Shown here: positions 1 to 32,131 of the stretch, piece after piece
Layout of the letters: each line of letters starts with the position of its first letter
Numbering within the stretch: position 1 is the first letter of the stretch
NCBI GenBank assembly: GCA_002353275.1
Contig: DEJH01000021.1
Coordinates: forward strand, 1-54,615
Direction: 5' to 3'
Length of the DNA stretch: 54,615 nt
Source of the DNA: Bacillales bacterium UBA2753
GTDB taxonomy: Bacteria; Bacillota_I; Bacilli_A; RFN20; CAG-826
The notes under the pieces: model-generated
Told to the model about the DNA's origin: nothing
Databases searched by the model: none
Seen by the model: the letters and a program-made list of their open reading frames with translations, nothing else
Translations under genes and position numbers: made by a program

Positions 1-80
1 TTTGCTTCACTAACATCTCTTCCGGTAACATAACCACCATTAGATTTAATAATTTTAGAAATCTTTTCAAAATTAGTCAT
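1..80 (-). CDS. 5' end of a CDS running off the left edge (visible: MTNFEKISKIIKSNGGYVTGRDVSEA...); possibly an AbiEi-like wHTH N-terminus
   Basis: ATG at 80-78 (in-frame alternative ATG at 98-96), open to position 1. The pattern resembles AbiEi-type N-termini but only 26 aa are visible. Confidence 0.25.
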   Translation of the reverse strand, partial: MTNFEKISKIIKSNGGYVTGRDVSEA

Positions 81-305: not shown

Positions 306-2492
306 TTATTTTTGAGAGATTTTTTTAGTTAAAGTGATAATTGAGTGATTATCAATATATTCATATTTATGAGTATCGACAAATTCTTTGACGATTTTTA
401 TCCCGAATCCGCCAATAGAGGCGTCTTTATCAATAGAAGTTAAATATTTGTCTTTATGATTCTTAAATGGATCATAGTCATTTCCGTTGGTCTTAATCTG
501 AATTGTTAAAACATTTTTAATGATAGAAAAATCAAAATCCATCACTAAATCATCTCTAGTTTCATAAGAGATAAAGTTATTAATTAGTTCATCTAAAATA
601 ATACCAACTTTAGCTTTAACTTCACTATCGATATAGAAGAATTTTTCATTAAATTTATCAACTACTTCATCAATTACAGAATAGTCTTTCTTTTCATAGT
701 GAAGAGATAATTTCTCTTCTTCACTTTTAACAATTAACATCGTTACATCATCAAATTGATCTTTACTACTAGTGAAAGCGTCTAGTCTCTTGTTAAGTTC
801 TTTAATAACTTCTTTTAATGGAAGAGAGGAGGTTTCTTGAAGAGTTTTTTCTATTCTTTCATAACCAAACTCTTCTCTTTCAGGATTAATTGATTCATTT
901 AATCCGTCCGTAAACATAAAGATGACATCACCTTTATGGAAGGCGTGTTTTTCCTCAACAAAATCAATATTATCAATTCCACCTAATACAAAGTTTGAAT
1001 TTCCTTCAAGTTTAATCACTTTGTTTTGAGAAATGATATAAGGTTTTTCGTGACCTGCATTAACATATCTAATTTCTTCTTTTTCGAAATTAATGATTCC
1101 AATAAAGGAAGTAACAAATAAGCTTTCATTATTATTTTCGTTAAGAGTTTCATTAACTTCTTTAACCGCTTTCGCTAAATTAGATTCACTCTTAAGTTGA
1201 GATTTAAGAAGAGCTTTGCTCTTCATCATGAATAAAGCAGCAGGAATTCCTTTACCTGAGACATCAGAAATAAGAATTGCTAGTTCATAATCATTAATAT
1301 AGAAATAATCATAGAAATCTCCACCGACTTCTTTAGCCGCTTTAATAAATGAACGGATCGAAACTTCATTATTATTAAAACTGGATTTTGGAAGAGCTTC
1401 TAATTGAATCTTACTTGCAATTTCAAGTTCAGCGTTAATTTTCTCTTTTTCTTTCGCATCTGCTTTAATGATATCAACGTAATTTATTAATTGATTTTCC
1501 ATCACTAAGAAGGAGTCACTTAGTGTTTTCATTTCATCAAAGGATTTAATATTTGGATCCACTAATTCAAAATTTGAGCCATTTTTAAGTTGAGAAGAAA
1601 TACCAAGAGCAGCTTTATTAAGCTTATTGATGTTTTTCACAAACATGAAATATGAAAGAATAGCATAAAGAATAATGACGACAAGTCCAGTAATCGTTAA
1701 GATAATGATTTCTCTTATTAAGATTGGACGATATTCATTAGCAACAGCAGCAGTGTCATATTCCACAAACATATATCCAATTGTCAATAAATCAGTACTA
1801 TCAGGATCATCGGTTTGAATCTCAATAAAACGAGTGGAATATTTCCCTAATTTAAATTCTTTAACATATTTATTGCCGATATCAGTAATAGAGTCTCCTG
1901 GCTTAAGATCATAAAAACTTCCAGCAACATGATAATAATTGCCTGTTTCGCGATAGCTTTCTAATCGAGAATCACCCATGAAAATCAAACGATTTTCGAT
2001 AGTTGGATGCCAAAAAGCGTAAAAAGCAGCTTGCCCACAATAAATAGCAGCCTTACTTAACAAAGGGTTAACGCGGTTATAATTTTCTTTAAACTGTAAA
2101 TATGGGAGTGAAGACGGCATACCTACAGGATAATAGAAACTAAAAACGTTAGAATAAACTTGCTCATACTCTTTAAAGGAAGAGTAGTTACTTTGGATAG
2201 CGATATTAACTGGGTCATCAGCAGGAAGCGCTAATAAGGTATCGTTGACATATTTTTTAACTGCGGCAAATGAATTGATGTTATCAGCTGAATTTGGGTT
2301 AGTTAAGTTATAATCAACTTGAGCGGTTTCAAGAGATTCAATCGCATAATTATTTAAATCTCTTTTCGCTCTTTCTTGCATGTTGTTATAGTTGACAATA
2401 ATCGCAACTGTGGACGCAATAAAAGAAGTGATAATTCCTAAAAGAATTACCTTTAAAAGTATCGGAAAACGAATCTTTTTCTTTTTATTCAT
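306..2492 (-). CDS. Membrane sensor PP2C (SpoIIE/RsbU-type) phosphatase fused to a C-terminal RsbW-like HATPase domain
   Basis: N-terminal TM, about 230-aa extracytoplasmic region, second TM. PP2C motifs VGGDFYDYF, SDVSGKGIPAAL, FTDGLNES. C-terminal about 125 aa has an N-box-like ELINNF and a G-box IGGFGIKIV. Confidence 0.85.
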   Translation of the reverse strand: MNKKKKIRFPILLKVILLGIITSFIASTVAIIVNYNNMQERAKRDLNNYAIESLETAQVDYNLTNPNSADNINSFAAVKKYVNDTLLALPADDPVNIAIQSNYSSFKEYEQVYSNVFSFYYPVGMPSSLPYLQFKENYNRVNPLLSKAAIYCGQAAFYAFWHPTIENRLIFMGDSRLESYRETGNYYHVAGSFYDLKPGDSITDIGNKYVKEFKLGKYSTRFIEIQTDDPDSTDLLTIGYMFVEYDTAAVANEYRPILIREIIILTITGLVVIILYAILSYFMFVKNINKLNKAALGISSQLKNGSNFELVDPNIKSFDEMKTLSDSFLVMENQLINYVDIIKADAKEKEKINAELEIASKIQLEALPKSSFNNNEVSIRSFIKAAKEVGGDFYDYFYINDYELAILISDVSGKGIPAALFMMKSKALLKSQLKSESNLAKAVKEVNETLNENNNESLFVTSFIGIINFEKEEIRYVNAGHEKPYIISQNKVIKLEGNSNFVLGGIDNIDFVEEKHAFHKGDVIFMFTDGLNESINPEREEFGYERIEKTLQETSSLPLKEVIKELNKRLDAFTSSKDQFDDVTMLIVKSEEEKLSLHYEKKDYSVIDEVVDKFNEKFFYIDSEVKAKVGIILDELINNFISYETRDDLVMDFDFSIIKNVLTIQIKTNGNDYDPFKNHKDKYLTSIDKDASIGGFGIKIVKEFVDTHKYEYIDNHSIITLTKKISQK

Positions 2493-2503
2493 CCTTTATT
2501 AGC

Positions 2504-2800
2504 CTATTTAACAGTTAAGACGTTATTAAAACCTGTCACCTTAAAGACTTCTTGGCAGATTGGATTAAGGTTATGGATTTCAAGTTCTTTTTTACAAGCA
2601 CTTAAAGATTTCTTAAGCGCTAATAAAGCACGTAAACCAGCAGAAGAAATATATTCGAGTTCTTTCATGTCAATGATGACAACCTCTTCTTTAATTTCTT
2701 CCTTATTCATTTTTTCAGTAAAATCAACTGAAGTAACTGTGTCGAGTCTTCCTTTTAAAGAGACGACTAGTTCTTTTTCGTGTTTGATACTAATTTCCAT
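2504..2800 (-). CDS. STAS-domain anti-sigma-factor antagonist (RsbV/SpoIIAA-like)
   Basis: 98 aa. Canonical ELEYISSAGLRALL phospho-serine loop (codons at 2633-2659). Lies 3 nt after the MATE ORF and 11 nt before the PP2C ORF. Confidence 0.9.
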   Translation of the reverse strand: MEISIKHEKELVVSLKGRLDTVTSVDFTEKMNKEEIKEEVVIIDMKELEYISSAGLRALLALKKSLSACKKELEIHNLNPICQEVFKVTGFNNVLTVK

Positions 2801-2803
2801 TTT

Positions 2804-4558
2804 TTATACTCCTTTAATTTTGATTTCTAAAACTGTGTTATTTAAATTAAGTATACGCATGTATGAGATTTTATCGGTAAGGTTTTTGATAAGTTTTATT
2901 CCACTAGTAGAATAATTCTCATTTTCATCGAAGTCATATTTAGTTGGGTCAAATGGAACTCCATCATCTCTAATACGTAATAATAAAGTGTCATCAACTA
3001 ACTTCATATTAACATCGATATAGTTGCGTTTTTCTTTTTTATATCCATAACAAATGATGTTATCCACCATCTCTTCAGCAGCTAGTCCAACAATTGAACT
3101 TTCTCTATCAGGAACATTATGTTTTTTAGCAAATTCGATGATTTGTTCAGAAACGATAGAAGCATTTACTTCTTCGTTTTCTAAAGAAACATCAAATGTT
3201 TCTGGATCGATATCTTCACACATCAAGATACCTTTATATTTCTTTTTCTTATCATAAATAAGAATGAAGACGTAAACAATGATCACCGTGGCAATTTCGT
3301 TAACCGCGCAAGCGATCGAATAACCAAGTAAACCATGAGTGAATAAAAGCACTAAAGTTAATGGAAGAACAATGATTAATTCTCTTAATAAGACTGTTAA
3401 CATCGATGGGATGTTTTTATCAATAGTTGGATAATAATTCATTGAGAATTTATTAATCTCATATGGGATGAAGGAGATGAGATATACCCATAGCATCGTG
3501 TTAATATAATCGACATTTTCCGTTGGGGTAAAGCCGAAGATTTGGCAATACGCTTTTGGGAAAATAAGGATGAATAATGAAATTAAGACTGTAATTATAA
3601 TATTGATCCAATAGATCTTTCTTGCGATCGATTTAAGGGAATAATAATCTTTTTCTCCATAAAAGATTCCGCATAGGTTAGGAATGATATTAAGCACTCC
3701 TCCACAAAGTAGATCAAAAAGGAAGACCATGTTAGAGATTAATCCATAAATAATTAAATCAAAATCATTAAAGAGTTTACCGATAAAGATATTAACAATT
3801 AACATTTGAACCGCGGTTAAAAGTAAGTTTAAAGCAGAAGTCGAAGTCGCTTTAAAGATTTCTTTTCCACTACTTTCTTTAAGATTAAAGGTAATTTTAA
3901 GCATTCTTTTCTTACTGGCGAAATAGAAGATAACAACAATTAAACCAACAAAATAACCCGCACCAGTAGATAAAGCCGCTCCATACATTCCCCAATCAAA
4001 GACTTTGATGAATAAGATTTCTAAACCAACTTTAGCGATATTACTTAAAATATAGAAAATTGATGATAATCTAGGATTATTATCAACCGCCATAAAGGAA
4101 CCAATTAATAAAGCAAAAGTAATAATTGGATCAGTCACTAAATACATCATGATATATTCAGTCGCGTATTGTTGATATAAAGCATTACCATCACTAAAAA
4201 GGGAAGCTAAAGGAGCAGAGATAGGATAAGCAATAGCAGCAAAGAGAATAGAAATACCCATTCCAACAATAAGAGAGAACGAATATGCTTTTTTTGCTCC
4301 TATTTCATCTCGTTTACCAAGTAAAGTCGCGACCACTATCGCGCCCCCAATTCCTAAAGCAAATCCAGGAATCTGAACGACATATAATATTGGCATCACT
4401 AAACTAGAAGCACTAAGAGCTTCATTGCCAATAAAGTTACCAACTAAAATTCCATCAACAAGCGAACCAAATTGCATCGCAAAAATCATTAATATTGATG
4501 GAATGAGATAAGTAATGAATTTACGATTTATCAATTTAGCGTTTCTAACTAAACTCAT
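2804..4558 (-). CDS. MATE-family efflux transporter with a C-terminal RsbW/SpoIIAB-like (HATPase_c_2-type) cytoplasmic domain
   Basis: About 445 aa of 12-TM MATE-like core (N-terminal LVDGILVGNFIGNEALSA). An extra tail of about 135 aa (about 2804-3195) has N-box AAEEMVDNII, G1-like IRDDGVPFDP and a degenerate G2 (STSGIKLI). Its start overlaps the NRPS stop (ATGA, 4555-4558). Confidence 0.8.
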   Translation of the reverse strand: MSLVRNAKLINRKFITYLIPSILMIFAMQFGSLVDGILVGNFIGNEALSASSLVMPILYVVQIPGFALGIGGAIVVATLLGKRDEIGAKKAYSFSLIVGMGISILFAAIAYPISAPLASLFSDGNALYQQYATEYIMMYLVTDPIITFALLIGSFMAVDNNPRLSSIFYILSNIAKVGLEILFIKVFDWGMYGAALSTGAGYFVGLIVVIFYFASKKRMLKITFNLKESSGKEIFKATSTSALNLLLTAVQMLIVNIFIGKLFNDFDLIIYGLISNMVFLFDLLCGGVLNIIPNLCGIFYGEKDYYSLKSIARKIYWINIIITVLISLFILIFPKAYCQIFGFTPTENVDYINTMLWVYLISFIPYEINKFSMNYYPTIDKNIPSMLTVLLRELIIVLPLTLVLLFTHGLLGYSIACAVNEIATVIIVYVFILIYDKKKKYKGILMCEDIDPETFDVSLENEEVNASIVSEQIIEFAKKHNVPDRESSIVGLAAEEMVDNIICYGYKKEKRNYIDVNMKLVDDTLLLRIRDDGVPFDPTKYDFDENENYSTSGIKLIKNLTDKISYMRILNLNNTVLEIKIKGV

Positions 4559-7500
4559 ATATCGGTCCTTTCAAAGAAACCAAGGGTTTCAAGCGATTCA
4601 ATTGCATTTTTTAAATAACTATAATCTGTAATTGGCCATTTATAACCAAGGTGATACAAACTCTTATTAGTGAATTCATTATCACTCAAAATGAATGAGT
4701 GAGTGTGCATATCACTTGATGAATATGAAATTAGAGAAGAAACAAGCATGCTCTTAGATTCATCTAACATCATCTCTTTCATCGAAGCGAGGAATTCATC
4801 ATCAGGAGTAACTTCAATGTTAAAGCCAAGTTCATTTAAAACAGCGATAATATCTCCCATCTGCACCATATGTGAATTAGCGGAATGGAAGACAGTAAAT
4901 TTAGATGGAGTCTTGGCTAAAAGAATAATCGTTTTAGCGACTTCGTCAATTGGAGAGAAGTCAACTTCCACATCCATCGAATTAACAGGGTACTTTTTAA
5001 GAGTGACATATCCTTTTAAATCTCTCATGAAGCCATTAGTAATCGAGTTAGCTTGGAACTCACCATCTTTTTGTCGGCTCATTAAGTTACCGACACGGAT
5101 AATCTTGCCGTCTAATTTACCTTCATCAACCGCATTTAATAAGGCTTTTTCAGCATCAAATTTAGAGTGGACATATTTATTAGAGACATCTTGACCAAAG
5201 TCTAACATATCTTCTTTCATCCTGAAGGATGGCGCAAATTTCTCATCGATATTTTCTCCAGCAACGGATAAGGTGGAGATTTGGATTAAACGAGCGCCTT
5301 TCTTCTCAGCGATATTAATTAAATTTTTCACTCCACCGACATTAACTTGTTCAATGATGTCACTATTAGCGAAATGTTTAACAATCGCTGCAGAGTTAAT
5401 GATTAAATTAAAGTCGTAATCTTTTAATTTCTCATAAAGCGATTCATCTGTGACATCTCCATCAACAATTTCAACATATTCATTGACTTCATCAATTAAT
5501 GGGGAATCAAAATAATAGGCTAATAAAGCTAGGAGACGATCTTTCGCGTTAAGTTTGCCTCCTCTAATCAAAGCGACAACTTTCACTTTTTGATCTAATA
5601 ATTCTTTAAGAATATGAATTCCTAAAAATCCAGTTGAGCCAGTGAGAAGAACTTTTTTCACTTCAAAATCAATTTTGATATCGTTAACTTCACTGACGAC
5701 GTTATGGGAAAGAGAAGATAATTCTGCTTTTTCTTCTTTCTTTTCCTCTTTAGTTTCAACTTTACCTCCTGAAATAGAAGCGATATATTCTTCAAGTTCT
5801 AATACTGTGGAATGATCAAAGACATCACCATAAGCAATTGGTAATCCCATATTAAGCGCAAGCATCGCAACTTTAGAAACGCTTAAAGAAGTTCCTCCCA
5901 TTTCAAAGAAATCATCATCCACTCCAACTTCTTCTTTTCCAAGAGCTTTCTTAAATAAAGTTAAGAGTTTTTCTTCTAATTCGTTAGAAGCTTTCTTCAC
6001 TTCTTTATGTTCGACTTTCATTTCGATTTCTGGAAGTGATTTTTTATCAATCTTACCATTTGGGGTAAGTGGGAATTTATCTAACTGCATCACCACTTTT
6101 GGAACCATATATGGAGTTAAGTATTTACTCATATGATTAAGTAAATCATCTTTATCAACCTGGCTAGAGGCGGTGAAATAAGCGGCTAGATAATCGCCTT
6201 CGACTTGGCTTTGTTTTACTAAGATGATGCTTCTAGTAACTGTTTTATAAGAGTTAAGGACTCTTTCGATTTCATCGAGTTCTACTCTTAAGCCTCTTAA
6301 TTTGACTTGGTTATCAAGTCGACCAAAGAATTCAATATTGCCTTCACTATTAATTCGAGCCATATCACCACTTCGATAAGCTTTTATTCCATTAACTTCA
6401 ATAAATACTTCTTTAGTTTTTTCAGGCATTCCTAAATAACCTAAACCAACAGATTCTCCAGCGATTGTTAAATCTCCAATCGCGTTAGTTGGCAATAAGT
6501 GTCCTTTTTTATCAAGAATATAGGTTTTAGTATTAGCGACTGGTTTACCAATCGTCATATATTTATCTTTTACTAAAGAATAAGTTGCGGTAATCGTTGT
6601 TTCAGTTGGACCATAACCGTTAAGAATATTGGCATTAACTCCTAAATTTCTTAAGCGATTACATAATTCCATTGGAACAGCTTCCGCTCCCATATCGAGG
6701 TATTTAAATCCTTTTAGAGCCTCAACAAAGACATCGATGTCTAATAAGTTAGACACGAAGGAAGGAGTCATAAACATGAATTTCACTTTGTTATCTTTCA
6801 ATGTCTTAGCGAGCAACATTGGGTTTTCAATTTCTTCTTCACTAGCAATAACTGCGGTATAACCATGCGTTAAAGGAATGAATTCTTCTTGTAAAGAAGC
6901 ATCGAAAGAAAGAGAGGCAAATGAGCAAGAAACACATTCTTCTCCAATATCGCGATATGCGTGAGTGGCTAAGTTAGAGCCATCACTAACATAGTTAGCC
7001 AAATTCTTATGAGCGATCATCACTCCTTTTGGTCGACCAGTCGAGCCAGAAGTATAAATGACATAAGCTAAGGAAGAAAGTGGAATCTTCACATTAGGAT
7101 TTTTATCTTTTTTATTTTCTAAAATATCTTCAATTGCCAAAGCTTTAACTTTTGCTTCTTTAATTAAAGCTTGTTTTTCTTTAATGATATCTTTAGTGGA
7201 GATCAAATATTTGCTTCCTGAATTAGAGATGATATAACTCACTCGATCATCAGGATATTTAGGATCAACTGGGACAAAAGCTCCTCCACTTTTAACGATA
7301 CCTTGTCTAACAACATAGGATTCTTTAATTCGAGGCATGAACATGATTACACATTCACCAAGTTTAAGATTGTTATCGAGTAAAGTATGAGCGACTTTAT
7401 TAGCGCCACTATTGAGCTCTTGATATGTTAATTTACCGTTTTTAGCGATAACAGCAACTTTATCAGGGTGTTTGTCAGCTTTTTCTTCAAGAAGAATATT

Positions 7501-10500
7501 CACTGTCTTATTTTGGATTTCAACCTCAGTAGCGTTATTCTTCTTTAAGAATTCTTCATCATATTTTGGGAGAGTGTTAATTTCTCCAACACTCTTTTTA
7601 GTTAATAATTTATTTAAGACTAATTCATATAAACGGTTAAATGAATCAATTGTGTCTTTATTATAAATAGAAGTATCCCATTCATAATGAGCGCGATATT
7701 TATTATCTTCTAAGAAGATATCTAGCCCGAAATCACTCTTAGGAGTTTCACTTTCCATTAATATTGGAGTGACTTTATGTCCTCCGATTTCTTCAAAATT
7801 GAAGTTATCTCCTTGATAAGCGAAGATAATGTTCGCTTTTAAGTTATAATCGTTAACGATATCACCAAATGAATAAATATCATTTTCTTCTAAATTAGAG
7901 AGAAGTTCTTTCATCTCATTAAGCTTATTAAGAACATTTTCTTCATCATTATATTTAATAAAGACCGGTAAGGTTTTCACTAACATCGAAACTGTATTCA
8001 TCACTTTTGAAGATTTACGTCCGTTATATATAGTTTCGTAAAGCGCTTCTTCTTTATAAATGAATTTAGATAAGGTGAAAGCAAAGGCAAAATTAAACAA
8101 AGCGTTATTCGTTAATTTGTTTTTGCTTATGAATTCTTTAACTTTCTCATTATCTAAAGATAATGTGACATCAACGGATTCTAATTTAGATTCATCTAAG
8201 ACTTTTAAATCTTTCTTTAAAACATATTCTCCATCGACATCTTTAAGAACGTTATTATAGAAGGCTTTAGCCTTTTCTAATTTATCAGAAGCCAAATCGT
8301 CTTTTTCTTTTAAGGCCACTTCATAACCAGTAAATGATTCACTAGTTAATTCTTCTCCTAGATAAGCTTTATTAATATCCTCTAAGATAATTGCTTCAGA
8401 AGAACCATCGCAAAGGATATGATGGAAATCTAAGAAGAGATAATTTTCTTTCCCTTGATAGATTTCAACGCGATATAAAGTGGAATTTAAAATTGAGAAT
8501 GGTCTCACTAATTTCTTGATATCGATTTCTTCTTTGATTAAATCAACTTTGGCTTTTTCTTTATTGCGTTTAGCTAAAATATCACCATTATCATTCATAT
8601 ATAAGATTGATTTAAGATATGGGTGATTATCAATCGCTTTTTCCACTGCTACTTTTAATTTATTTAGATCGATATTCTTATCAAGTTTAAATAAATATGG
8701 AATGTTATAGTTTGTGGAATTAGCTTTAGAAACACATTCAACAAAAATTCCTTCTTGAGTTTTGCTTAATGGATATTCTTCTCTAATTTCATATCTCTTT
8801 TCTTCTTCTTTATTAGCGAGGAAAGAAGCTAAAGAGGCAATGGTTGGATTCTCTTTTAAGTCAGCGTTTTCCACTGATTTATCATATTTCTTTGATAAAA
8901 GAATCGTAAATCTAATCGAACTAACTGAAGTTAATCCAACTTCGAATATATCGTTAGTAACTCCGAATTGATCATGCCCAAGGATATCTTTTAAGATATC
9001 AAAGATCTCTTGTTCGTCTTTATTTCTTGGCGCGACAATTTCTTCTACTTTAAGTTCAGGAACTGGTAGAGCGCGTTTATTGACCTTTTGGTTTTGATTA
9101 AGTGGAATCTTATCGATTTGCATCGTATACGCTGGAACCATATATGGTGGCTTTCTTTCTAAGATAAAAGCGTTAAGAGATTCAACATCAATCTTTTTAT
9201 CGCTTACCACATAAGCAACGATATATTTCACTCCACTTGGGTCAGTGAAATCTTTAACAGTCGCATCTTTAATATTTGGATAATCTCTAATGACTTTTTC
9301 GACTTCAGAGAGTTCCACTCTAAAGCCACGTATTTTCACTTGTCCATCTTTTCGACCGATGAAATCAATTGTTCCATCTTCTAATAAGCGGACAATATCT
9401 CCAGTTTTATATAATCTTTCAAATTTTTCTTCTTTATCGATGAAGTTAGTTAAGAAAGCTTCTTTATTTTCTTTTTCTCTATTTAAATAGCCTCTAGCGA
9501 CTTGTGGGCCAGAAATATATAGTTCTCCACTAGTGAGAATAGGAAGTCTCTTCTTATTTTTATCTAAAACATAAATCTTATAGTCGGATAGGCATTTACC
9601 AATTGGGATACGGTGATAATTTTCTTTCACCTCTTGAGCGGTGCAGAAGACTGTTCCTTCAGTTGGTCCATATAAATTAAAGAATTTAACTCCTTTAGGT
9701 GGATCCATTGGAACAAGCTTTTCTCCTCCAACCATGAAATATTTAAGGGATTTAACTTCAATTTCACTGATGAATTGACGACCGACTTGAGTGGTCATAA
9801 ACGCATGGGTGATTTTGTTTTGATTATAATATTCACCAAGTTCAACAAGATTAAGTCTCATCTCATCAGGAATGATATATACGGTTGCTCCACTAGTAAG
9901 AGATGGATATAAATCCATCATATCAGCGTCAAAGCCATATGAAGCATAAGCAGCATTACGACATCCTACTCCTAAATTAAATTCTTGACGGTAATATCGA
10001 CAGAAACTAAAGATGTTACCGTGCTCTAACATAACTCCTTTAGGAACACCAGTTGAGCCAGAAGTATAAAGCATAATGAATAAATCTTTAGGGGATGGAC
10101 GGGTTTTGATTTCTCGATCATCTTTTAAAGAGAGTAAATCTTCAGTAAAGATCGTGTGTCCTTTAAAGTCATCGACTAAATCATCGAGTTCTTTCTCTCT
10201 AATAAGGATAATTGCACTACTATCTTTAACCATGAAAGTTAATCGATCTTTTGGATAAGACGGATCTAATGGTTGATAAGCGGCTCCACTTTTAATGACG
10301 CCTAAACTTGCTAAAACGATATATTCGCTTTTCTTAGTGAGAATAGAGACGACTTTTTCTTTTTTGGCACCGAGTCTAATTAATTCGTTAGCGATTCTCG
10401 TCGAGATTTGATCAACTTCTTTATAGGTATATTTTTTATCTTTATAGACCACTGCGATTTCATTAGGGTGTTTCTTCACTACTTCATAGAAATCATCAAG

Positions 10501-11781
10501 AATGGTTTTATTGTCTTCGATATATGGGAAATTAGTCTTATTAAATGAATCAAGTAATTTGATTTCTTCTTTATCGAGTAAATCAATATCGATCATTTTT
10601 TCTTTCTTTAAGAATTCAGATAAAACAATTTCATATTCTTTAATCAAATGCTTAATTGTGTTTTCTAAATATAAATCAGAACGATATTCAACCCAGATGA
10701 GATATTTTTCACCAAGTCGATGAAGTTCGATTGATAATTTTTCTTTTCCATCTTTTCTACCTAATGGAGTGACTTCAATCACTTTATTTTGATATGTTCC
10801 GGAATAGAAATAATCTCCTTGATAAGCGAATAAAACATCCGCGGAGACTCCTAAATCCTTATTCATATCACTAAATGGATAAGAGTTATGCTTGACGTTT
10901 TCAATTACTTCATCATTAGTCTTTTTTAAATAATCAGAGATTTTATCTTCGTCTTGATAATTTAAATAAAGTGGATAAGTTTTGACATAAGAGCCAAATG
11001 AATGACTAACTGATTCATCTCTTCCATTATTAACAGTGAGGAAAAGAGATTCGTTTTCCATATTGATCTTACTTAATAAATAAGAGAAGGCACTTAAGAA
11101 GAATGAAGAAGTTTTAATCTTTAACTTCTTAGTAAGAGATTTAACTTCTTTATCGGTAATCTTAATTTCTCTACGGATATTAGAATAAGAGACTTCTTTA
11201 TCTTGTTTATCTTCTACTGGAGTGGAATCGGTTTCAATTCCTCCCACTAGTTTTTCATAATAATCTTTAGCTTCTAAATATTTTTTGCTCTTTAAATCTT
11301 TTTCTTCTTTTAAGGCAAATTCATTAGCGTCACATTCTTCTTTTTTGATCTCTTTATTTTCTAAAGCAGCAAAGAAATCATTAATAAAGATATGAATGGA
11401 AGAACCATCCATAATGATGTGATGGAAATCAAAATAGAAGATATATTCATCTTTTACTTTGTAAAGCTTAAAGCGATATAAATGTTTATTTAATAATTCA
11501 TATGGGAGAGAAGTGATTTTTAATTCTTTAACTTCTTCAAGTTCAAGTTTGATCTCTTCTTTTTCAATATGTTTAACAATGTTTCCACTTTCATCAATGG
11601 AAAGAATGGTAAAGATATATGGGTGAGCGTCACACACTTTTTTTAACGCATCACTCACTTTTTTAAGAGTTACATCTTTTCCTAAATTAACAGTGTGAGC
11701 GAGGTTATAAGCATCTCCAGAAGATAAAGAAGAGATATATAATCCCTGTTCACTTTTAGATAACGGAAAGAATTTGTTCAT
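4555..11781 (-). CDS. Bimodular nonribosomal peptide synthetase, C-A-T-C-A-T-R (terminal thioester reductase)
   Basis: C1 HHIIMDG 11404-11424. A1 core LYTSGSTGVPKG about 10040-10075. T1 GLTS Ser codon 8926-8928. C2 HHILCDG 8404-8424. A2 core IYTSGSTGRPKG about 7030-7065. T2 GGTS Ser codon 5887-5889. R domain TGSTGFLG 5621-5652 and YVHSK 5161-5175. The ATG at 11781 is preceded by GGAGGG; the TTG-extended ORF to 11796 is unlikely. Confidence 0.95.
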   Translation of the reverse strand: MNKFFPLSKSEQGLYISSLSSGDAYNLAHTVNLGKDVTLKKVSDALKKVCDAHPYIFTILSIDESGNIVKHIEKEEIKLELEEVKELKITSLPYELLNKHLYRFKLYKVKDEYIFYFDFHHIIMDGSSIHIFINDFFAALENKEIKKEECDANEFALKEEKDLKSKKYLEAKDYYEKLVGGIETDSTPVEDKQDKEVSYSNIRREIKITDKEVKSLTKKLKIKTSSFFLSAFSYLLSKINMENESLFLTVNNGRDESVSHSFGSYVKTYPLYLNYQDEDKISDYLKKTNDEVIENVKHNSYPFSDMNKDLGVSADVLFAYQGDYFYSGTYQNKVIEVTPLGRKDGKEKLSIELHRLGEKYLIWVEYRSDLYLENTIKHLIKEYEIVLSEFLKKEKMIDIDLLDKEEIKLLDSFNKTNFPYIEDNKTILDDFYEVVKKHPNEIAVVYKDKKYTYKEVDQISTRIANELIRLGAKKEKVVSILTKKSEYIVLASLGVIKSGAAYQPLDPSYPKDRLTFMVKDSSAIILIREKELDDLVDDFKGHTIFTEDLLSLKDDREIKTRPSPKDLFIMLYTSGSTGVPKGVMLEHGNIFSFCRYYRQEFNLGVGCRNAAYASYGFDADMMDLYPSLTSGATVYIIPDEMRLNLVELGEYYNQNKITHAFMTTQVGRQFISEIEVKSLKYFMVGGEKLVPMDPPKGVKFFNLYGPTEGTVFCTAQEVKENYHRIPIGKCLSDYKIYVLDKNKKRLPILTSGELYISGPQVARGYLNREKENKEAFLTNFIDKEEKFERLYKTGDIVRLLEDGTIDFIGRKDGQVKIRGFRVELSEVEKVIRDYPNIKDATVKDFTDPSGVKYIVAYVVSDKKIDVESLNAFILERKPPYMVPAYTMQIDKIPLNQNQKVNKRALPVPELKVEEIVAPRNKDEQEIFDILKDILGHDQFGVTNDIFEVGLTSVSSIRFTILLSKKYDKSVENADLKENPTIASLASFLANKEEEKRYEIREEYPLSKTQEGIFVECVSKANSTNYNIPYLFKLDKNIDLNKLKVAVEKAIDNHPYLKSILYMNDNGDILAKRNKEKAKVDLIKEEIDIKKLVRPFSILNSTLYRVEIYQGKENYLFLDFHHILCDGSSEAIILEDINKAYLGEELTSESFTGYEVALKEKDDLASDKLEKAKAFYNNVLKDVDGEYVLKKDLKVLDESKLESVDVTLSLDNEKVKEFISKNKLTNNALFNFAFAFTLSKFIYKEEALYETIYNGRKSSKVMNTVSMLVKTLPVFIKYNDEENVLNKLNEMKELLSNLEENDIYSFGDIVNDYNLKANIIFAYQGDNFNFEEIGGHKVTPILMESETPKSDFGLDIFLEDNKYRAHYEWDTSIYNKDTIDSFNRLYELVLNKLLTKKSVGEINTLPKYDEEFLKKNNATEVEIQNKTVNILLEEKADKHPDKVAVIAKNGKLTYQELNSGANKVAHTLLDNNLKLGECVIMFMPRIKESYVVRQGIVKSGGAFVPVDPKYPDDRVSYIISNSGSKYLISTKDIIKEKQALIKEAKVKALAIEDILENKKDKNPNVKIPLSSLAYVIYTSGSTGRPKGVMIAHKNLANYVSDGSNLATHAYRDIGEECVSCSFASLSFDASLQEEFIPLTHGYTAVIASEEEIENPMLLAKTLKDNKVKFMFMTPSFVSNLLDIDVFVEALKGFKYLDMGAEAVPMELCNRLRNLGVNANILNGYGPTETTITATYSLVKDKYMTIGKPVANTKTYILDKKGHLLPTNAIGDLTIAGESVGLGYLGMPEKTKEVFIEVNGIKAYRSGDMARINSEGNIEFFGRLDNQVKLRGLRVELDEIERVLNSYKTVTRSIILVKQSQVEGDYLAAYFTASSQVDKDDLLNHMSKYLTPYMVPKVVMQLDKFPLTPNGKIDKKSLPEIEMKVEHKEVKKASNELEEKLLTLFKKALGKEEVGVDDDFFEMGGTSLSVSKVAMLALNMGLPIAYGDVFDHSTVLELEEYIASISGGKVETKEEKKEEKAELSSLSHNVVSEVNDIKIDFEVKKVLLTGSTGFLGIHILKELLDQKVKVVALIRGGKLNAKDRLLALLAYYFDSPLIDEVNEYVEIVDGDVTDESLYEKLKDYDFNLIINSAAIVKHFANSDIIEQVNVGGVKNLINIAEKKGARLIQISTLSVAGENIDEKFAPSFRMKEDMLDFGQDVSNKYVHSKFDAEKALLNAVDEGKLDGKIIRVGNLMSRQKDGEFQANSITNGFMRDLKGYVTLKKYPVNSMDVEVDFSPIDEVAKTIILLAKTPSKFTVFHSANSHMVQMGDIIAVLNELGFNIEVTPDDEFLASMKEMMLDESKSMLVSSLISYSSSDMHTHSFILSDNEFTNKSLYHLGYKWPITDYSYLKNAIESLETLGFFERTDI

Positions 11782-11852
11782 TTTCTGTCCCTCCAAATTA
11801 GTATTATGTTTCTATTTATATGTAATATAAGAATATTATAACGAGTATAAAC

Positions 11853-11883
11853 AAAAAATAGAAAACCTATTTCAGTTTTCTAT
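11853..11883 (-). terminator. Rho-independent terminator after the HAD lipoprotein gene
   Basis: ATAGAAAAC/GTTTTCTAT stem followed by a T-run on the minus strand. Confidence 0.7.
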
Positions 11884-11890
11884 CTTGTAA

Positions 11891-13507
11891 TCATATTTTT
11901 TTAAGCTCATAAGAAATATAGATTTGAGTTTTAGTGGTTACTTTATTCTCGACGTTATCACCTTTTGTGGTGAGATTATCTTCGTAATAATATAAGTCAC
12001 CATGAGTGTTATAAAGTCGACATCCTTCATCATAAAGACTAATCTCTTTTTCACTTACTACACTTTGACCACTAGCGATATATCTAAAGCGATAATTAGA
12101 ATTAGACGAATAATATGTAGCGCTTAATTTTTGATAAAGACTTTGATTAAAAATTGCTAAACTTTGATCTAAATCTTTTGCTTTATTCTCAACAAATACG
12201 GCGTATGAATCAATTACTGGGTCTTCTATATTAATGCTCCATTCATGAGTTTCGCTATTATATGTAGCGATATATTGCTCGACATCAGTAGAAACTATAG
12301 GCTCTCCTTCAGCTGAATAAGTTGTGACTTCTTTAGCTAGATCAAGATACGCTTTTGAATATTGTCCAGTTGGAATTAAGCTAGTCGCTTCATGGAAAGC
12401 GGAATATTCAATTTTATTGACATCGCTACTAGACCAAGAGAAGCCAACTTTTTGAACATCATAGCCGTAAATAGTTTTGAAATCATCTTTCATCGAAATG
12501 ATGTTGTAATTGTTGTCTTTCCATTTTTTCTCTCGCTTAGAAGTTTCATCCATATCAACATAGTCTTCATCAGCATCATCAGCGATTAACATAAAGACTT
12601 CAGTTTGATATTTTTTATTTCCTTTACAATAATTATGCATTGCAACATCCCCACTACTATTTCCAAAGGAAAGGACTGGGACTTTACCAATTTCTTGAGC
12701 GATTTGTTTAACTTTATTAGTCTTTAAATTTTTGATGATTAATTCATCGGTTCTGATGACTTCTTCATCTGATTTCATATCGTAATTCACTCCATCGGTG
12801 TAACCTTGCTCGCTTGCCTTTAAAGTGACGTCCATTCCGATAACGTGATTAGAAGGAATACCAATTGATTCCACTAAAGCACGGCAAATAAATCGATCCG
12901 AACCACTTACTACATAGTTAGTAAAACCATAATCATTTAAATAATCAAAGACTTCTAACATTGGTTTATAAAAACTAGTTAAATAAGTCATTCCACTGAA
13001 GCCGTTTGGTGTATTTTGAGCATATTCTTTTACGTATTGATCAAATTCTTTTAAAGACATCCCTTCATATGCTTTAGCTGCAGCATGAGCGTGTCTTAAA
13101 TCAAAATGTTCTGGAAGAGGCACCCCATAACGAACAAAGTCTCTAATTTCTTGAGCGACTTCTTTGACCATAACTGGCGCTATATCTTTATAATTAGGAT
13201 CGTCTAAAGCGCGATATTCAAGTAAGTTATATTCGAAATAAGTTGGATATAACTCTCCAATAAAAGTACCATCCATATCAAAAGTAGCGATTCTATCTTC
13301 AACTGGAATGAAATATTCAGTGTTATTTTTATCAGTGACTTTTTTCACATATTCTTTTAAAACGGTTAAAGGTGATTTTCTTTCTTGAGTGCTCACTTCG
13401 TTCCATAAAGAGAAATAAGTCTTTTCACTACTTCCCCCTGATTGGTTACAACCCGCTAAAAGAGTAATAGCAGGGAATAAGACAAATAATAATGATGTTT
13501 TTTTCAT
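11891..13507 (-). CDS. Lipoprotein with HAD-superfamily phosphatase-like domain plus a C-terminal domain of about 200 aa of unknown function
   Basis: Lipobox LLAGC. HAD motif I FDMDGTF, motif II VVSGS, motif III/IV K...FGNSSGDVAM. Confidence 0.6.
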   Translation of the reverse strand: MKKTSLLFVLFPAITLLAGCNQSGGSSEKTYFSLWNEVSTQERKSPLTVLKEYVKKVTDKNNTEYFIPVEDRIATFDMDGTFIGELYPTYFEYNLLEYRALDDPNYKDIAPVMVKEVAQEIRDFVRYGVPLPEHFDLRHAHAAAKAYEGMSLKEFDQYVKEYAQNTPNGFSGMTYLTSFYKPMLEVFDYLNDYGFTNYVVSGSDRFICRALVESIGIPSNHVIGMDVTLKASEQGYTDGVNYDMKSDEEVIRTDELIIKNLKTNKVKQIAQEIGKVPVLSFGNSSGDVAMHNYCKGNKKYQTEVFMLIADDADEDYVDMDETSKREKKWKDNNYNIISMKDDFKTIYGYDVQKVGFSWSSSDVNKIEYSAFHEATSLIPTGQYSKAYLDLAKEVTTYSAEGEPIVSTDVEQYIATYNSETHEWSINIEDPVIDSYAVFVENKAKDLDQSLAIFNQSLYQKLSATYYSSNSNYRFRYIASGQSVVSEKEISLYDEGCRLYNTHGDLYYYEDNLTTKGDNVENKVTTKTQIYISYELKKI

Positions 13508-13590: not shown

Positions 13591-14340
13591 TTATTCTTTA
13601 AAAGATGCCCATGGATATTGAATCATATATTCTCCACGGTATAATCTAACCGCATCTGGATTATCTTTTTTATATTCGTAAGCGTCACAATCAATTTTAT
13701 TAACATCAATTGAATATCCATTAAATTTCTTAACAAAAACATCTTCACAATCAATTGATTTTAAACTTTGTTTGATATCCGCGATTAAGTTTCTTAGATA
13801 CGATTTATGATCTTCTTCCCACAAAATCGCATTGAGTTCATTGACATTAATTGATGAACCTTCTCGATCAATAAGATAGGCAAAAACTTCTTTTGATTTT
13901 TGATAAGAGAATTTTACAGGGCTTCCATTATGGAAAATTTCAAAATTGCCAAAGCATTTGACTTGGAGTTTTTTCTCACTTTTAAGATTAATAACATTAT
14001 CGAGTTCATCAATCTCGACTTTGATTTTATTTTCGTTAACTGGCTTAGTAATATATCCAGAAGCGTGAACGCGATACGCATCTAAGGCGTAATTATTATA
14101 AGCAGTCACAAAAATAATTTTAATTTTAGGATTGATTGATTTTAATTTTTTCGCAAGTTGAATCCCATTAAGTCCTGGCATTTCAATATCCAAAAAAGCG
14201 AGATCAAAATTAATATTAGATTCCATTACTTTTATAGGATTAGTGAAGGAAAAGAATTCGCTATCAGGCATCACCTTTTTACAAGCGTTTTCAAGTCTTA
14301 TTAATTGAAGTTCTTCATCATCTACTAAAAGTATTTTCAT
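13591..14340 (-). CDS. Response regulator: REC domain plus SARP/OmpR-type winged-helix DNA-binding domain
   Basis: MKILLVDDE...LDIEMPGLNG receiver. The C-terminal LQVKCFGNFEIFHNG..KSKEVFAYLI...LNAILWEED...LRNLI pattern is typical of SARP-type wHTH. Confidence 0.8.
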   Translation of the reverse strand: MKILLVDDEELQLIRLENACKKVMPDSEFFSFTNPIKVMESNINFDLAFLDIEMPGLNGIQLAKKLKSINPKIKIIFVTAYNNYALDAYRVHASGYITKPVNENKIKVEIDELDNVINLKSEKKLQVKCFGNFEIFHNGSPVKFSYQKSKEVFAYLIDREGSSINVNELNAILWEEDHKSYLRNLIADIKQSLKSIDCEDVFVKKFNGYSIDVNKIDCDAYEYKKDNPDAVRLYRGEYMIQYPWASFKE

Positions 14341-14342
14341 AA

Positions 14343-15896: not shown

Positions 15897-16454
15897 CTAG
15901 CAGGAATACCAGATCGTGAGGGAGGAGATTGTAATGTTTACTTCTCCCAACGGCATCAATGCCGGACTGTCGTCAGGGGCAATTGATAGCCCTTTGTATT
16001 CTTGCCCGCTGGTGATGTGATGAATCATCGTCCCCATGCTCGAAAAATCCACGGAAATGGGCTCGGGTTCTTCTTGTTGTTCAACCGAGAAAGAAATCGC
16101 GAAGCCGGTGATGGTGCGGAACGGATAGGCGCCTTCGTCCTCCGCAAACACGTCGTAGTGGCTGAGCATGAGGTGGTGGAAGGAAACGTTTCTGAAGGTG
16201 AAGCCAGCCTCTTCCTTGTCCCATCCCACCACGCCGACCTTGTTGCCGGCGGCGGTCGTCGTGCCGATGGCGTAATCGCCGTCTACCTCCTTGACGGTCG
16301 TATTGCTTTCGTCGAAGGTGACACTGTACTCAGTTGGATCTGCTTTTACCGCAAATGTATCTAATTGATTTGCTACGCCAACAACTAAAGCGGTAACGCC
16401 AACTGTGCAAGCTAACACTCCCATTGAGGCTAATAATAATGCTTTTTTCTTCAT
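15897..16454 (-). CDS. Secreted/anchored protein A: AT-rich signal-peptide exon-like 5' part joined to a GC-rich mature domain (185 aa, ends ..SLTIWYSC)
   Basis: AAGGAG RBS. MKKKALLLASMGVLACTVGV... leader. Composition switches to about 55-60% GC at about 16330. Shadow ORFs appear on other frames only in the GC-rich part. Confidence 0.7.
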   Translation of the reverse strand: MKKKALLLASMGVLACTVGVTALVVGVANQLDTFAVKADPTEYSVTFDESNTTVKEVDGDYAIGTTTAAGNKVGVVGWDKEEAGFTFRNVSFHHLMLSHYDVFAEDEGAYPFRTITGFAISFSVEQQEEPEPISVDFSSMGTMIHHITSGQEYKGLSIAPDDSPALMPLGEVNITISSLTIWYSC

Positions 16455-32126: not shown

Positions 32127-32131
32127 AATAT

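Follow-up and report, generated by a model that had tools for sequence, protein, structure and literature searches.

The window (the whole 54,615-nucleotide stretch of DNA that we analyzed, from a rumen bacterium) contains an operon that encodes an NRPS, a MATE exporter with an RsbW/SpoIIAB-like domain at its C terminus, a single-domain STAS protein, and a sensor protein that combines a PP2C phosphatase with a second RsbW-like domain. We propose that these form a partner switch in which the RsbW-like element of the exporter is a non-catalytic receptor for STAS, and we give this reading a probability of roughly one half. On this view, the target of the signalling would be export, not transcription.

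The four genes are co-oriented and tightly packed, and all of the features described below lie on the minus strand. They encode the NRPS (4555..11796, including a TTG extension), the MATE fusion (2804..4558; 584 amino acids), the STAS protein (2504..2800; 98 amino acids), and the PP2C-kinase-like protein (306..2492; 728 amino acids). A prior analysis of these letters alone (the sequence-only reading) had described an NRPS followed by a three-gene partner-switching set, spaced by a 4-nt overlap, a 3-nt gap, and an 11-nt gap. The spacing is exactly as described, and the ORF coordinates, Pfam matches, and motifs show that the set is real. The overlap is the sequence ATGA (4555..4558), which holds both the stop codon of the NRPS and the start codon of the MATE gene, so the two are probably translationally coupled. 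Many homologous loci have the end of the NRPS at the MATE start or 9 nt from it. Each downstream start is preceded by a Shine-Dalgarno sequence. As for the start of the NRPS, the TTG at 11796 falls within the ribosome-binding site, and the ATG at 11781 follows a GGAGG by 7 nt and agrees with the homologs, which begin with "MNK.."; this ATG is thus likely the true start. The intergenic region 5' of the NRPS (11797..11890) has a hairpin and T-run after a HAD-like gene, a promoter-like site (TTTATA-N16-TATATT, 11851..11824), and the ribosome-binding site. (These elements come from reading the sequence and a consensus scan, and are consensus matches only.)

The operon begins with the NRPS gene (4555..11781), whose two-module product ends in an NAD-dependent reductase (C-A-T-C-A-T-R). 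(Its Pfam content is two Condensation, two AMP-binding, and two PP-binding domains, with NAD_binding_4 at amino acids 2051-2290.) The dipeptide-aldehyde clusters of gut Firmicutes, such as ruminopeptin (rup) of Ruminococcus bromii, have NRPSs that are built along the same lines, from a C-starter through two modules to a terminal reductase, and likewise occur in gut anaerobes (reviewed in PMC12327764). By analogy to such C-A-T-C-A-T-R enzymes, the window's NRPS probably makes an N-acyl dipeptide aldehyde. The texts consulted on these clusters do not discuss accessory genes for regulation or export like those in the window.

The sequence-only reading had stated that the MATE ORF runs on into an RsbW/SpoIIAB-like domain, and this is what we found. 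The transporter core (about amino acids 1-440; 3239..4558) matches Pfam's MatE in two stretches (E = 2.9e-27, 95.8 bits). NCBIfam models for MATE proteins cover amino acids 10-436 end to end, yet the scores are under the equivalog cut-offs. The predicted cytoplasmic domain (amino acids ~456-584; 2807..3193) matches HATPase_c_2 at amino acids 467-568 (E = 2.3e-12, 47.5 bits versus a cut-off of 27.4). An AlphaFold2 model of this tail (pLDDT 81.9) has a SpoIIAB/RsbW fold: the top 13 PDB matches from Foldseek are all anti-sigma factors, with TM-scores of up to 0.77, and the best are SpoIIAB (1L0O; E = 3e-9, TM 0.77), RsbW, and UsfX.

By sequence comparison, the fusion is real and ancient. Overall it recurs at 50-99% identity, in over 120 protein clusters (which are at 62-99% identity) and in 41 species genomes. 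Of the 150 nearest representatives of 50%-identity clusters, at least 90 include the MATE domain. A far more divergent family of fusions (29-54% identity in the domain) is found in Clostridia, Heliobacteriaceae, and MAGs of Desulfobacteraceae.

We then considered whether the tail is likely to be a kinase. The motifs EEMVDN, RDDGVPFD, and STSGIKLI, which had been picked out beforehand, are all there. In the window's protein, the N-box glutamate and asparagine and the G1 D-x-G are retained, and the first glycine of G2 is replaced by threonine ("YSTSGI"). Among 103 tails (in SpoIIAB numbering), E46 is present in 102, N50 in 95, D81 in 101, G83 in 98, and G109 in 92, but G107, which is the first G2 glycine, is present in none; it is also absent from all 60 members of an independent set. 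Dozens of tail columns are invariant (including RDDGxPFDPTK, YSTSG, and NLNNT), and the Ser/Thr-rich "YSTSG" lid is invariant in the near clade. The sequence-only reading had suggested that the tail binds a partner rather than phosphorylating it. Because G107 has been lost across the family while the partner kinase-like domains keep this glycine, we favor the same view. UsfX of Mycobacterium tuberculosis is an RsbW homolog and anti-sigma factor that reportedly lacks kinase activity, with an antagonist that is reportedly phosphorylated by a different kinase.

The presumed partner is the STAS protein (STAS in Pfam, E = 2.3e-15), which also matches TIGR00377, for anti-sigma-factor antagonists (60.7 bits versus a cut-off of 53.45). 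It has the canonical phospho-serine loop that had been reported for it, and the predicted phospho-acceptor is Ser53 within YISSAGLR (codon 2642-2644). All 34 STAS orthologs keep YISSAGLR, and all 27 STAS proteins from divergent loci have Y-x-S-S-[AS]-G.

The third protein was expected to be a membrane sensor with a PP2C phosphatase and a second RsbW-like domain, and it has all of these. Its putative extracytoplasmic sensor region (amino acids ~36-255; 1728..2387), identified from hydropathy, is flanked by hydrophobic segments (amino acids ~6-35 and ~255-290) and has the lowest conservation in the protein (mean column identity 0.39). The AlphaFold2 model of this region (pLDDT 91.4) combines helices with an alpha/beta sheet and has weak structural matches: the extracellular domain of WalK (E = 0.011) and the sensor domains of TlpA and LuxQ. 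The phosphatase (amino acids ~390-590; 723..1325) matches SpoIIE at amino acids 402-589 (E = 1.4e-43) and has all four metal-binding motifs. These motifs (GGDFYD, DVSGKG, TDGLNE, and FDD[VI]T) are conserved among 33 aligned sequences except for two single-residue variants and one sequence that is masked in the first motif. As the phospho-loop of STAS and the catalytic motifs of PP2C are both essentially invariant, there is probably a working phosphorylation cycle.

The second RsbW-like domain follows the phosphatase (amino acids ~609-728; 309..668) and matches HATPase_c_2 at amino acids 609-723 (E = 1.6e-7, 31.8 bits versus a cut-off of 27.4). Both HATPase_c_2 matches are significant. The sequence-only reading had noted an intact G-box (IGGFGIKIV) in this domain. 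The N-box and G2 (GGFG) are indeed intact, but the domain is not fully canonical, because the G1 aspartate (D81 of SpoIIAB) is a threonine ("IKTNG"), which had been missed. The orthologs show the same pattern: N50 is conserved in 32/32 and G106, G107, and G109 in 31/31, while D81 is replaced by serine, threonine, or cysteine in 25/32 (Ser 20, Thr 3, Cys 2; Asp 5). A caveat, then, is that the proposed kinase lacks the adenine-binding aspartate of GHKL proteins, here as in the majority of close orthologs, and may be inactive. Stand-alone partner kinases from other loci are canonical (D81 in 9/9, G107 in 8/9).

From these features we propose the following mechanism. In a conserved biosynthesis-export module found in anaerobes of the gut and rumen, the R-terminated NRPS and its dedicated MATE exporter would be transcribed together and coupled in translation. 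The pump's tail, which has lost the ATP-lid glycine, probably still binds nucleotide and would be a receptor for unphosphorylated STAS. The third protein would set the phosphorylation state of STAS in response to a cue that its extracytoplasmic domain may sense: the PP2C domain would remove the phosphate from Ser53, and the RsbW-like domain beside it most likely adds it, so that kinase and phosphatase would be joined in a single chain, in the manner of SypE. When STAS binds to or leaves the tail, export would change, in one direction or the other, and the output of the switch would be the transporter and not a sigma factor. In favor of this reading, its components reappear elsewhere in other arrangements (L049, P0127, and P0370, described below). 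That the phosphorylation state of STAS gates export is what we infer, and the sequence-only reading had hypothesized as much. Its computationally checkable claims all stood, and its interpretation is partly supported; it is weakened by the missing D81 in the PP2C-linked domain and by divergent loci (10/25) without an adjacent STAS.

Alternatively, the pump could be a "transceptor" whose tail is an active serine kinase with a non-canonical lid, which phosphorylates STAS depending on the conformation of the transporter or on its substrate state. PP2C would reset the system, the RsbW-like domain beside it would be a regulatory or dimerization module, and the output of STAS would lie elsewhere, such as at the NRPS or at an unlinked target. 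The tail does conserve the catalytic-base glutamate, the Mg-binding asparagine, and the adenine-binding aspartate, along with G83 and the invariant near-clade lid, so it could have kinase activity despite an unusual lid, and the PP2C-linked domain lacks the G1 aspartate in this lineage. We still consider this unlikely, given the complete loss of the first G2 glycine from the tail. Also, 34/35 loci with STAS and PP2C have another RsbW-like domain whose lid is intact, the stand-alone forms are fully canonical, and the PP2C-linked orthologs that keep D-N-G show that the canonical state is ancestral.

If the tail instead were a membrane-tethered anti-sigma factor, it would hold a sigma factor that is encoded elsewhere until STAS released it, so that export or an external signal would control transcription, in the way of the classical RsbW and SpoIIAB systems. 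The closest structures (SpoIIAB, RsbW, and UsfX) all bind sigma factors, Leahy et al. proposed regulation of NRPS expression for the equivalent genes, and our view of this genome is 54 kb. But as the sequence-only reading had stated, there is no sigma factor in the window (no Sigma70 in Pfam searches of ORFs of at least 100 amino acids). It had also raised the prospect of a sigma factor gene that always accompanies homologous loci, and across the regions flanking 97 fusion loci, no sigma-like family recurs. The families listed for 150 representative ORFs from these flanks, all similar in size to sigma factors, have at most 3 members each and do not include Sigma70. (In the lone sigma-containing locus, L130, a short shared sequence marks what looks like a junction or chimera.) The module occurs in distant genomic contexts and in different phyla without a sigma gene. 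We therefore doubt that the tail is an anti-sigma factor.

The fusion's neighbors bear on another possibility. At 41 loci from near relatives, the NRPS is present at 40, STAS at 37, and PP2C-kinase at 33. Of the 97 loci in our census, 29 near and 25 divergent loci were evaluable; the NRPS is present at 29/29 and 22/25 of these, respectively. STAS is adjacent at 27/29 and PP2C at 25/29 near loci, and they are adjacent at about half of the divergent ones. Both are present together at 25/29 near and 10/25 divergent loci, accompanied by a second RsbW-like domain in 25/25 and 9/10 cases. So, the fusion does co-occur with STAS/PP2C and with NRPS genes, which the sequence-only reading had proposed to survey, and its deepest link is to R-terminated NRPSs. 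The NRPS and the fusion are found without an adjacent STAS at 4/41 near loci and at 10/25 evaluable divergent loci, which implies that the fused domain's primary link is to the NRPS and that the tail has a role that needs no adjacent STAS. Control of the pump by STAS may be optional or encoded elsewhere.

These associations would fit a tail that is a scaffold, which pairs with the RsbW-like domain of the PP2C protein or with a stand-alone one (as RsbW-type domains dimerize) or docks the NRPS, to form a membrane complex for sensing, synthesis, and export whose assembly is modulated by STAS. The translational coupling of NRPS and pump fits as well, as does the reciprocal degeneracy of the two domains (one lacks the G2 glycine and the other lacks the G1 aspartate). 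Both domains are on one polypeptide in P0127 and P0182; in P0127, a canonical kinase domain is fused behind the degenerate one, and the STAS gene is next. (In another variant, P0370, STAS is fused to the PP2C-kinase protein.) However, the case for a scaffold is inferential throughout, and four fusions have no NRPS nearby (L048, L049, L092, and L127); of these, L049 has STAS and RsbW as individual proteins, along with a 5TM-PP2C. We view a scaffold as improbable. Finally, an assembly or frameshift artefact, which the sequence-only reading had wished to exclude, or a decaying functionless remnant, is only an a priori possibility in MAG data and is refuted by full-length fusions from hundreds of independent assemblies and by the dozens of invariant tail columns.

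Returning to the non-catalytic receptor, how does it compare to known partner switches? The RsbU-RsbV-RsbW-sigmaB and SpoIIE-SpoIIAA-SpoIIAB-sigmaF systems of Bacillus likewise use PP2C, STAS, and RsbW/SpoIIAB-fold domains, and SpoIIAB and RsbW are the closest structures. Unlike them, the window's module has no associated sigma factor and shares its operon with an NRPS, and its RsbW-like domains are in a MATE protein (without the lid glycine) and fused to a phosphatase. There are precedents for non-sigma outputs. In Vibrio fischeri, SypE has kinase-like and PP2C domains on one polypeptide and acts on a STAS-only target, SypA (PMC10120452; PMC8256260). SypE, however, is cytoplasmic with a central receiver domain, whereas our protein has a two-TM extracytoplasmic sensor and the reverse order (PP2C and then kinase); and the window has a third component, the pump-fused domain, as the presumed target. 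In Anabaena HenR/All4160, the phosphorylation state of a STAS domain depends on kinases and a PP2C-type phosphatase, and this domain directly controls a non-sigma effector enzyme (PMC13555669). That STAS domain is part of the effector, a glycosyltransferase, whereas in the window STAS is a separate protein and the transporter carries the RsbW-like domain. The UsfX/RsfA/RsfB and Rv1364c proteins of Mycobacterium tuberculosis (PDB 8IH8, 8JZT, 3KE6) have the RsbW fold and are among the tail's structural matches, and Rv1364c fuses PP2C, RsbW, and STAS, much like P0370. But UsfX and Rv1364c act on sigma-F and are not attached to a transporter. Conversely, SLC26/SulP-STAS and MlaB-MlaFEDB do couple a partner-switch-type domain to a transporter, but it is STAS, with no RsbW-like domain, so the window's polarity is inverted.

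The sequence-only reading did not recognize the fusion as described, and our literature search for a description of a MATE-RsbW-like fusion did not find one. The neighborhood itself was noted in 2010, in Methanobrevibacter ruminantium M1 (mru0066-0071: NRPS, MatE, anti-sigma antagonist, and serine phosphatase), and sensing, regulation, and export were the functions suggested for these genes (PMC2812497). The gene order differs, and that paper does not report the RsbW-like domain on MatE. Also, JGI's automatic annotation labels some members "efflux pump/anti-sigma regulatory factor." If our reading is correct, the partner switch of a peptide-aldehyde operon would act on the exporter, not on transcription.

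Four minus-strand genes near the left end of the window look, from their sequences, like one operon. The first encodes an NRPS (4555..11796 as an open reading frame); its likely start is the ATG at 11781, with GGAGG 7 nt upstream, and homologs begin with MNK. The others encode the MATE fusion (2804..4558; 584 amino acids), which has MatE and HATPase_c_2 domains in Pfam; a STAS protein (2504..2800; 98 amino acids), with the STAS domain; and a PP2C protein with a second RsbW-like domain (306..2492; 728 amino acids), with SpoIIE and HATPase_c_2 domains. As the sequence-only reading had stated, the NRPS stop codon and the MATE start codon overlap (ATGA), and the next two gaps are 3 nt and 11 nt. 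A Shine-Dalgarno sequence precedes each of the three downstream starts, and a hairpin with a T-run and a promoter-like site (consensus-type sites) lie between the NRPS gene and the preceding HAD-like gene. The single operon is predicted because of these features together. The NRPS has the domain order C-A-T-C-A-T-R in Pfam, as in the gut dipeptide-aldehyde family, and its product class is predicted by analogy.

About 225 nt beyond the operon, another minus-strand gene starts at around position 80 ('MTNFEKISKIIKSNGGYVTGRDVSEA...') and exits the left edge (window 1-80), which leaves too little sequence to identify it. No strong terminator is predicted in between. On the other side of the operon are a LytS-type histidine kinase (420 amino acids; His_kinase, PF06580, plus HATPase_c) and a response regulator (249 amino acids), at 13591-15605 on the minus strand, and the 538-amino-acid HAD-like protein, at 11891-13507. 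Homologs of this response regulator are near the cassette in 11 loci that have the fusion, and in two loci one lies directly in place of the PP2C gene. It may provide a transcriptional tier of control over the operon.

The window's fusion protein belongs to the MatE family (PF01554; two stretches; 95.8 bits versus a cut-off of 24.9; E = 2.9e-27). Its MATE core is about 440 amino acids long. NCBIfam's MATE models (about 435 positions) align to amino acids 10-436 but score under every equivalog cut-off, so the pump represents a divergent MATE subfamily. The C-terminal tail, which had been taken for an RsbW/SpoIIAB-like domain, does match HATPase_c_2 (amino acids 467-568; 47.5 bits versus a cut-off of 27.4; E = 2.3e-12). 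We modelled the tail with AF2 from an alignment of 32 sequences; the pLDDT is 81.9, and confidence is lowest in the ATP-lid region. In a Foldseek comparison to the PDB, the top 13 matches were SpoIIAB, RsbW, and UsfX (E to 3e-9; TM-score up to 0.77), and the RsbU-RsbW fragment of Rv1364c was also matched. The model has a SpoIIAB-type GHKL/Bergerat fold. Few parts of the protein are conserved as well as the tail, in which the EExVxN, RDDGxPFDPTK, YST, and NNT columns do not vary.

The fusion is not a frameshift or an assembly artefact, because it recurs at full length in independent genomes with a conserved tail. First, its full-length relatives form more than 120 clusters at 62-99% identity, nearly all of 580-590 amino acids and nearly all with both Pfam domains. 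Second, a scan of species-representative genomes found the full-length fusion in 41 species. (These are all MAGs from the rumen or gut, labelled Erysipelotrichaceae, Bacilli, Acholeplasmatales, Clostridia, or Christensenellales.) Third, when the tail alone was the query of an exhaustive HMMER search, 2,895 matches had E < 1e-3 and 299 had E < 1e-10; of the 150 best representatives (50%-identity clusters), at least 90 have a MATE domain. Among the best tail representatives, most are 570-612 amino acids long, with the tail at about 455-590 and 29-54% identity in this domain. Named divergent members come from Desulfobacteraceae, Heliobacteriaceae, and one "Proteobacteria" MAG. We did not find the fusion in a plasmid collection, where the matches were generic RsbW-like "ATP-binding proteins" at 27-30% identity. 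A profile search of 5.8 billion proteins with the tail alignment returned chiefly gene fragments and added little.

The fusion had been considered novel, which holds for the literature that we searched: no paper that we found discusses it. It does not hold for the annotations or for the gene neighborhood. NCBI labels members as either "MATE family efflux transporter" or "ATP-binding protein", but the JGI pipeline's label, [quoted passage not shown], names both parts, so annotation pipelines already see the composite. Also, Leahy et al. (2010) described an NRPS, a MatE pump, an anti-sigma antagonist, and serine phosphatases that adjoin in M. ruminantium, and guessed at roles in sensing, regulation, and export; they did not mention a fused RsbW-like domain (PMC2812497).

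The other components of a partner switch are well conserved. The window's STAS protein is a single-domain member of its family (Pfam E = 2.3e-15; TIGR00377 at 60.7 bits versus a cut-off of 53.45). Its loop YISSAGLR, which includes the predicted phospho-acceptor Ser53, does not vary among orthologs (34/34), and each of the 27 STAS proteins from divergent loci has the motif as well. The phosphatase had been proposed to be of the PP2C type, and the protein is indeed a member (SpoIIE; amino acids 402-589; 149.5 bits; E = 1.4e-43). Across 33 aligned sequences, the motifs GGDFYD, DVSGKG, TDGLNE, and FDD[VI]T are kept, except for two single-residue variants and one sequence that is masked in the first motif. 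Because the STAS loop and the metal-binding motifs of the phosphatase are conserved, a real phosphorylation cycle on STAS is likely. The least conserved part of the PP2C protein is bracketed by hydrophobic segments (amino acids ~6-35 and ~255-290). This part is modelled with a pLDDT of 91.4 as long helices plus an alpha/beta sheet, and in structural matching it weakly resembles the extracellular sensor domains of WalK, TlpA, and LuxQ (best E = 0.011, which is not significant, so the matches suggest no ligand). An extracytoplasmic input is plausible.

To compare the two RsbW-like domains, we aligned them to SpoIIAB (numbered as in 1TH8). Among 103 pump-fused domains, most of the ATP-binding residues are kept (Glu46 in 102, Asn50 in 95, Asp81 in 101, Gly83 in 98, and Gly109 in 92). 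None of the 103 has glycine at 107; 50 have threonine, and the others have mainly hydrophobic residues or asparagine. Arg105 is replaced, mostly by tyrosine or phenylalanine. Gly107 is also absent from all 60 pump-fused domains of an independent set. The pattern that the sequence-only reading saw in one protein, with the N-box and G1 kept and G2 degenerate, is thus a property of the family, and the pump-fused domain lacks a complete set of ATP-binding motifs (the first G2 glycine is missing).

The PP2C-fused domain (HATPase_c_2 at amino acids 609-723 in the window; E = 1.6e-7) differs at other positions. Asn50 is present in 32/32 sequences and the G2 glycines (GGFG) in 31/31. Asp81 is usually replaced, with serine in 20 of the 32, threonine in 3, cysteine in 2, and aspartate in 5. 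This second domain had been described as having an intact G-box, which is correct for G2 but not for G1, whose aspartate is a threonine in the window (IKTNG); there, its ATP-binding motifs are also incomplete. In the divergent set, 7 of 11 PP2C-fused domains have Asp81, and the stand-alone RsbW proteins are fully canonical (Asp81 in 9/9; Gly107 in 8/9). (A sequence search of the PDB with the PP2C-linked domain gave no match.) A domain with an intact lid thus accompanies STAS and PP2C in 34/35 loci, and in the pump's own domain the lid is degenerate across the family. This bears on the alternative that the pump tail is an active kinase. The retained N-box and G1 residues would fit such an activity; with the first G2 glycine missing and an intact-lid domain nearly always at hand, we consider it unlikely.

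The neighborhood of the fusion suggests which proteins it works with. The order NRPS, fusion, STAS, PP2C-kinase is syntenic in the loci of the 41 species, with the NRPS in 40/41 (on the one other contig, there is too little sequence to decide), STAS in 37/41, and PP2C-kinase in 33/41. As exceptions, four of these near loci have the NRPS and the fusion with no adjacent STAS or PP2C, and two have STAS followed by a response regulator at the PP2C position. We added 80 metagenomic loci, found with a tail profile (an 11-sequence subset of divergent tails), and some contexts of distant members; domains were called with locally iterated HMMs. In total, 97 loci have the MATE + RsbW-like fusion. Considering only loci flanked by 3 kb or more in both directions, 29 near loci contain the NRPS in 29, STAS in 27, PP2C in 25, and the second RsbW-like domain in 25. 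For the 25 such divergent loci, the counts are 22, 13, 10, and 10, and 10 divergent loci have the NRPS without an adjacent STAS. The proposed co-occurrence with NRPS genes holds in both sets; that with STAS/PP2C holds in most near loci and in about half of the divergent ones. The fusion's most constant partner is the R-terminated NRPS, not STAS.

The strongest comparative evidence of joint function is that the shared parts are reshuffled, both in order and in fusion state. Other orders in the family are NRPS, fusion, PP2C-kinase, STAS; fusion, NRPS, STAS, PP2C; and NRPS, fusion, STAS, second fusion, PP2C, stand-alone RsbW. A Heliobacteriaceae-type locus (L049) has the fusion, STAS, stand-alone RsbW, and a 5TM-PP2C without an NRPS. 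Two MATE pumps have tandem RsbW-like domains. P0127 (L044:888-3248) has a canonical lid in its second domain (IGGLGKL) and is followed by a STAS gene. P0182 (L045:9001-11265) has two degenerate lids, and its neighbors are GT2, GH3, APH, an A-T-C NRPS-like protein, and an HD protein. P0370 (819 amino acids), a homolog of the window's PP2C protein, has STAS at the N-terminus of the PP2C-kinase, which makes it a triple fusion in the manner of Rv1364c. Another possibility is that the tail is a scaffold that pairs two reciprocally degenerate domains, or that it docks the NRPS. The complementary losses at G2 and G1 and the constancy of the NRPS would suit a scaffold, and the loci without an NRPS would not; we give this little weight.

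Beyond the cassette, the flanks are not conserved, and the only widespread extra neighbor is an Sfp-type PPTase, which lies just upstream of the NRPS in 24/41 near loci and 36/97 fusion loci. There is no PPTase in the 54-kb window, so the NRPS here must use one that is encoded elsewhere. In four species (L012:14670-15824 and three other loci), a 384-amino-acid protein downstream of the cassette joins an N-terminal STAS domain to an APH/choline-kinase-like phosphotransferase, and a related APH protein without STAS follows the two-domain pump in L045-L047. Five loci (L066, L067, L069, L072, and L074) have a three-module R-terminated NRPS, two MATE + RsbW-like fusions, one STAS, a PP2C of about 750 amino acids, a stand-alone canonical RsbW, and conserved proteins of 193-199 and 166 amino acids.

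The absence of a sigma factor from the window, which had been claimed, was borne out by a Pfam scan of all ORFs of at least 100 amino acids, none of which has a Sigma70 domain. Clustering the flanking ORFs of 41 and then 97 loci gave no recurrent sigma-like family. When 150 representatives of the flanking ORFs (130-340 amino acids) were scanned in a batch with Pfam, Sigma70 was not listed, and each listed family had at most 3 members. From these scans of the window and of the flanks, we reject a sigma factor that is adjacent or just past the window's edge. Nothing is conserved after the cassette in homologs. With no Sigma70 in the window or recurring in the 97 loci, the tail does not appear to bind and inhibit an operon-encoded sigma factor.

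One contig (L130) does encode a SigF-like region 2/3 (Sigma70_r2/r3), joined to the C-terminal half of a pump-type HATPase_c_2 domain (P0147; 222 amino acids; 1353-2021). On one side are a STAS gene and a truncated SpoIIAB-like gene; on the other are STAS, MatE, GH3, SpoIIE, and HATPase_c_2 genes. Because the join is at a short shared GLAVEEIA and the SpoIIAB-like neighbor is truncated, P0147 probably arose by recombination or as a chimera of the assembly, and we reject it as a functional sigma link. (Compared with the L066-type clusters, L130 has a GH3-family amido synthetase at the equivalent position.) That the tail is a tethered anti-sigma factor for an unlinked sigma factor would agree with its SpoIIAB-type fold, and seems improbable to us given that no sigma-like family recurs in the flanks of the 97 loci.

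The window also has two sharp GC-rich islands on the minus strand (15897-16454 and 17022-17735; up to 60% GC in a 32% GC genome). These are not structured RNAs: they have no Rfam match, and they code for two small, secreted paralogs whose genes share a 5' segment of 111 nt at 93% identity (signal peptide 'MKKKALLLASMGVLACTVGVT'). Both proteins end in Cys. The proteins have no Pfam match, and there is no copy in any locus that we fetched. A 1197-amino-acid ORF and an adjoining 298-amino-acid ORF (28533-33028, minus strand) have no Pfam match at E <= 1e-3, nor do several smaller ORFs at 37-41.6 kb.

Overall, we put the probability at about one half that the pump tail, STAS, and the sensor-PP2C protein form a partner switch that controls export. 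By analogy with gut C-A-T-C-A-T-R enzymes, the NRPS product would be an N-acyl dipeptide aldehyde (PMC12327764), and the co-translated MATE pump would export it. The tail would be a non-catalytic RsbW-like receptor, probably nucleotide-binding, that binds unphosphorylated STAS. The sensor-PP2C protein would set the phosphorylation of STAS with its phosphatase domain and its own kinase-like domain, which we infer to be the kinase. Since this protein would determine the state of STAS, an external cue could modulate export, whether up or down.

Partner switching is the textbook mechanism of sigma-factor control, and the parts of the window's set belong to the RsbU/RsbV/RsbW tool-kit. To our knowledge, only a handful of its outputs do not involve sigma factors; SypA and Anabaena HenR/All4160 are precedents. 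As in the window's PP2C protein, SypE and Rv1364c combine a kinase and a phosphatase in one protein. Unlike SypE, which has a central receiver domain, the window's protein lacks Response_reg and has a two-TM extracytoplasmic region as its input. We know of domains from STAS systems on transporters solely in the opposite polarity (SLC26-STAS and MlaB).

The fusion module is real, conserved, and uncharacterised, and the mechanism is plausible and testable. The four-gene module is compact, has many independent variants, and is amenable to standard biochemistry and heterologous expression. Tentatively, and at somewhat less than even odds, we propose that it represents a class of signal-gated exporters that has not been characterised before and that would be widespread in anaerobes, between Bacillota and Desulfobacterota. 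In this class, a partner switch would act post-translationally on a MATE pump, the RsbW-like protein having become a non-catalytic domain of the pump. It would give dedicated control over the export of reductase-terminated NRPS products such as peptide-aldehyde protease inhibitors. If so, this would be the first RsbW-like element that we could find as part of a transporter, and MATE pumps would gain a mode of post-translational regulation that was not described before. Peptide aldehydes of this NRPS class are reactive protease inhibitors, and detecting them in cultures is difficult. A cue-responsive gate on export or regulation could explain why such clusters seem silent and would offer a handle for activating them.
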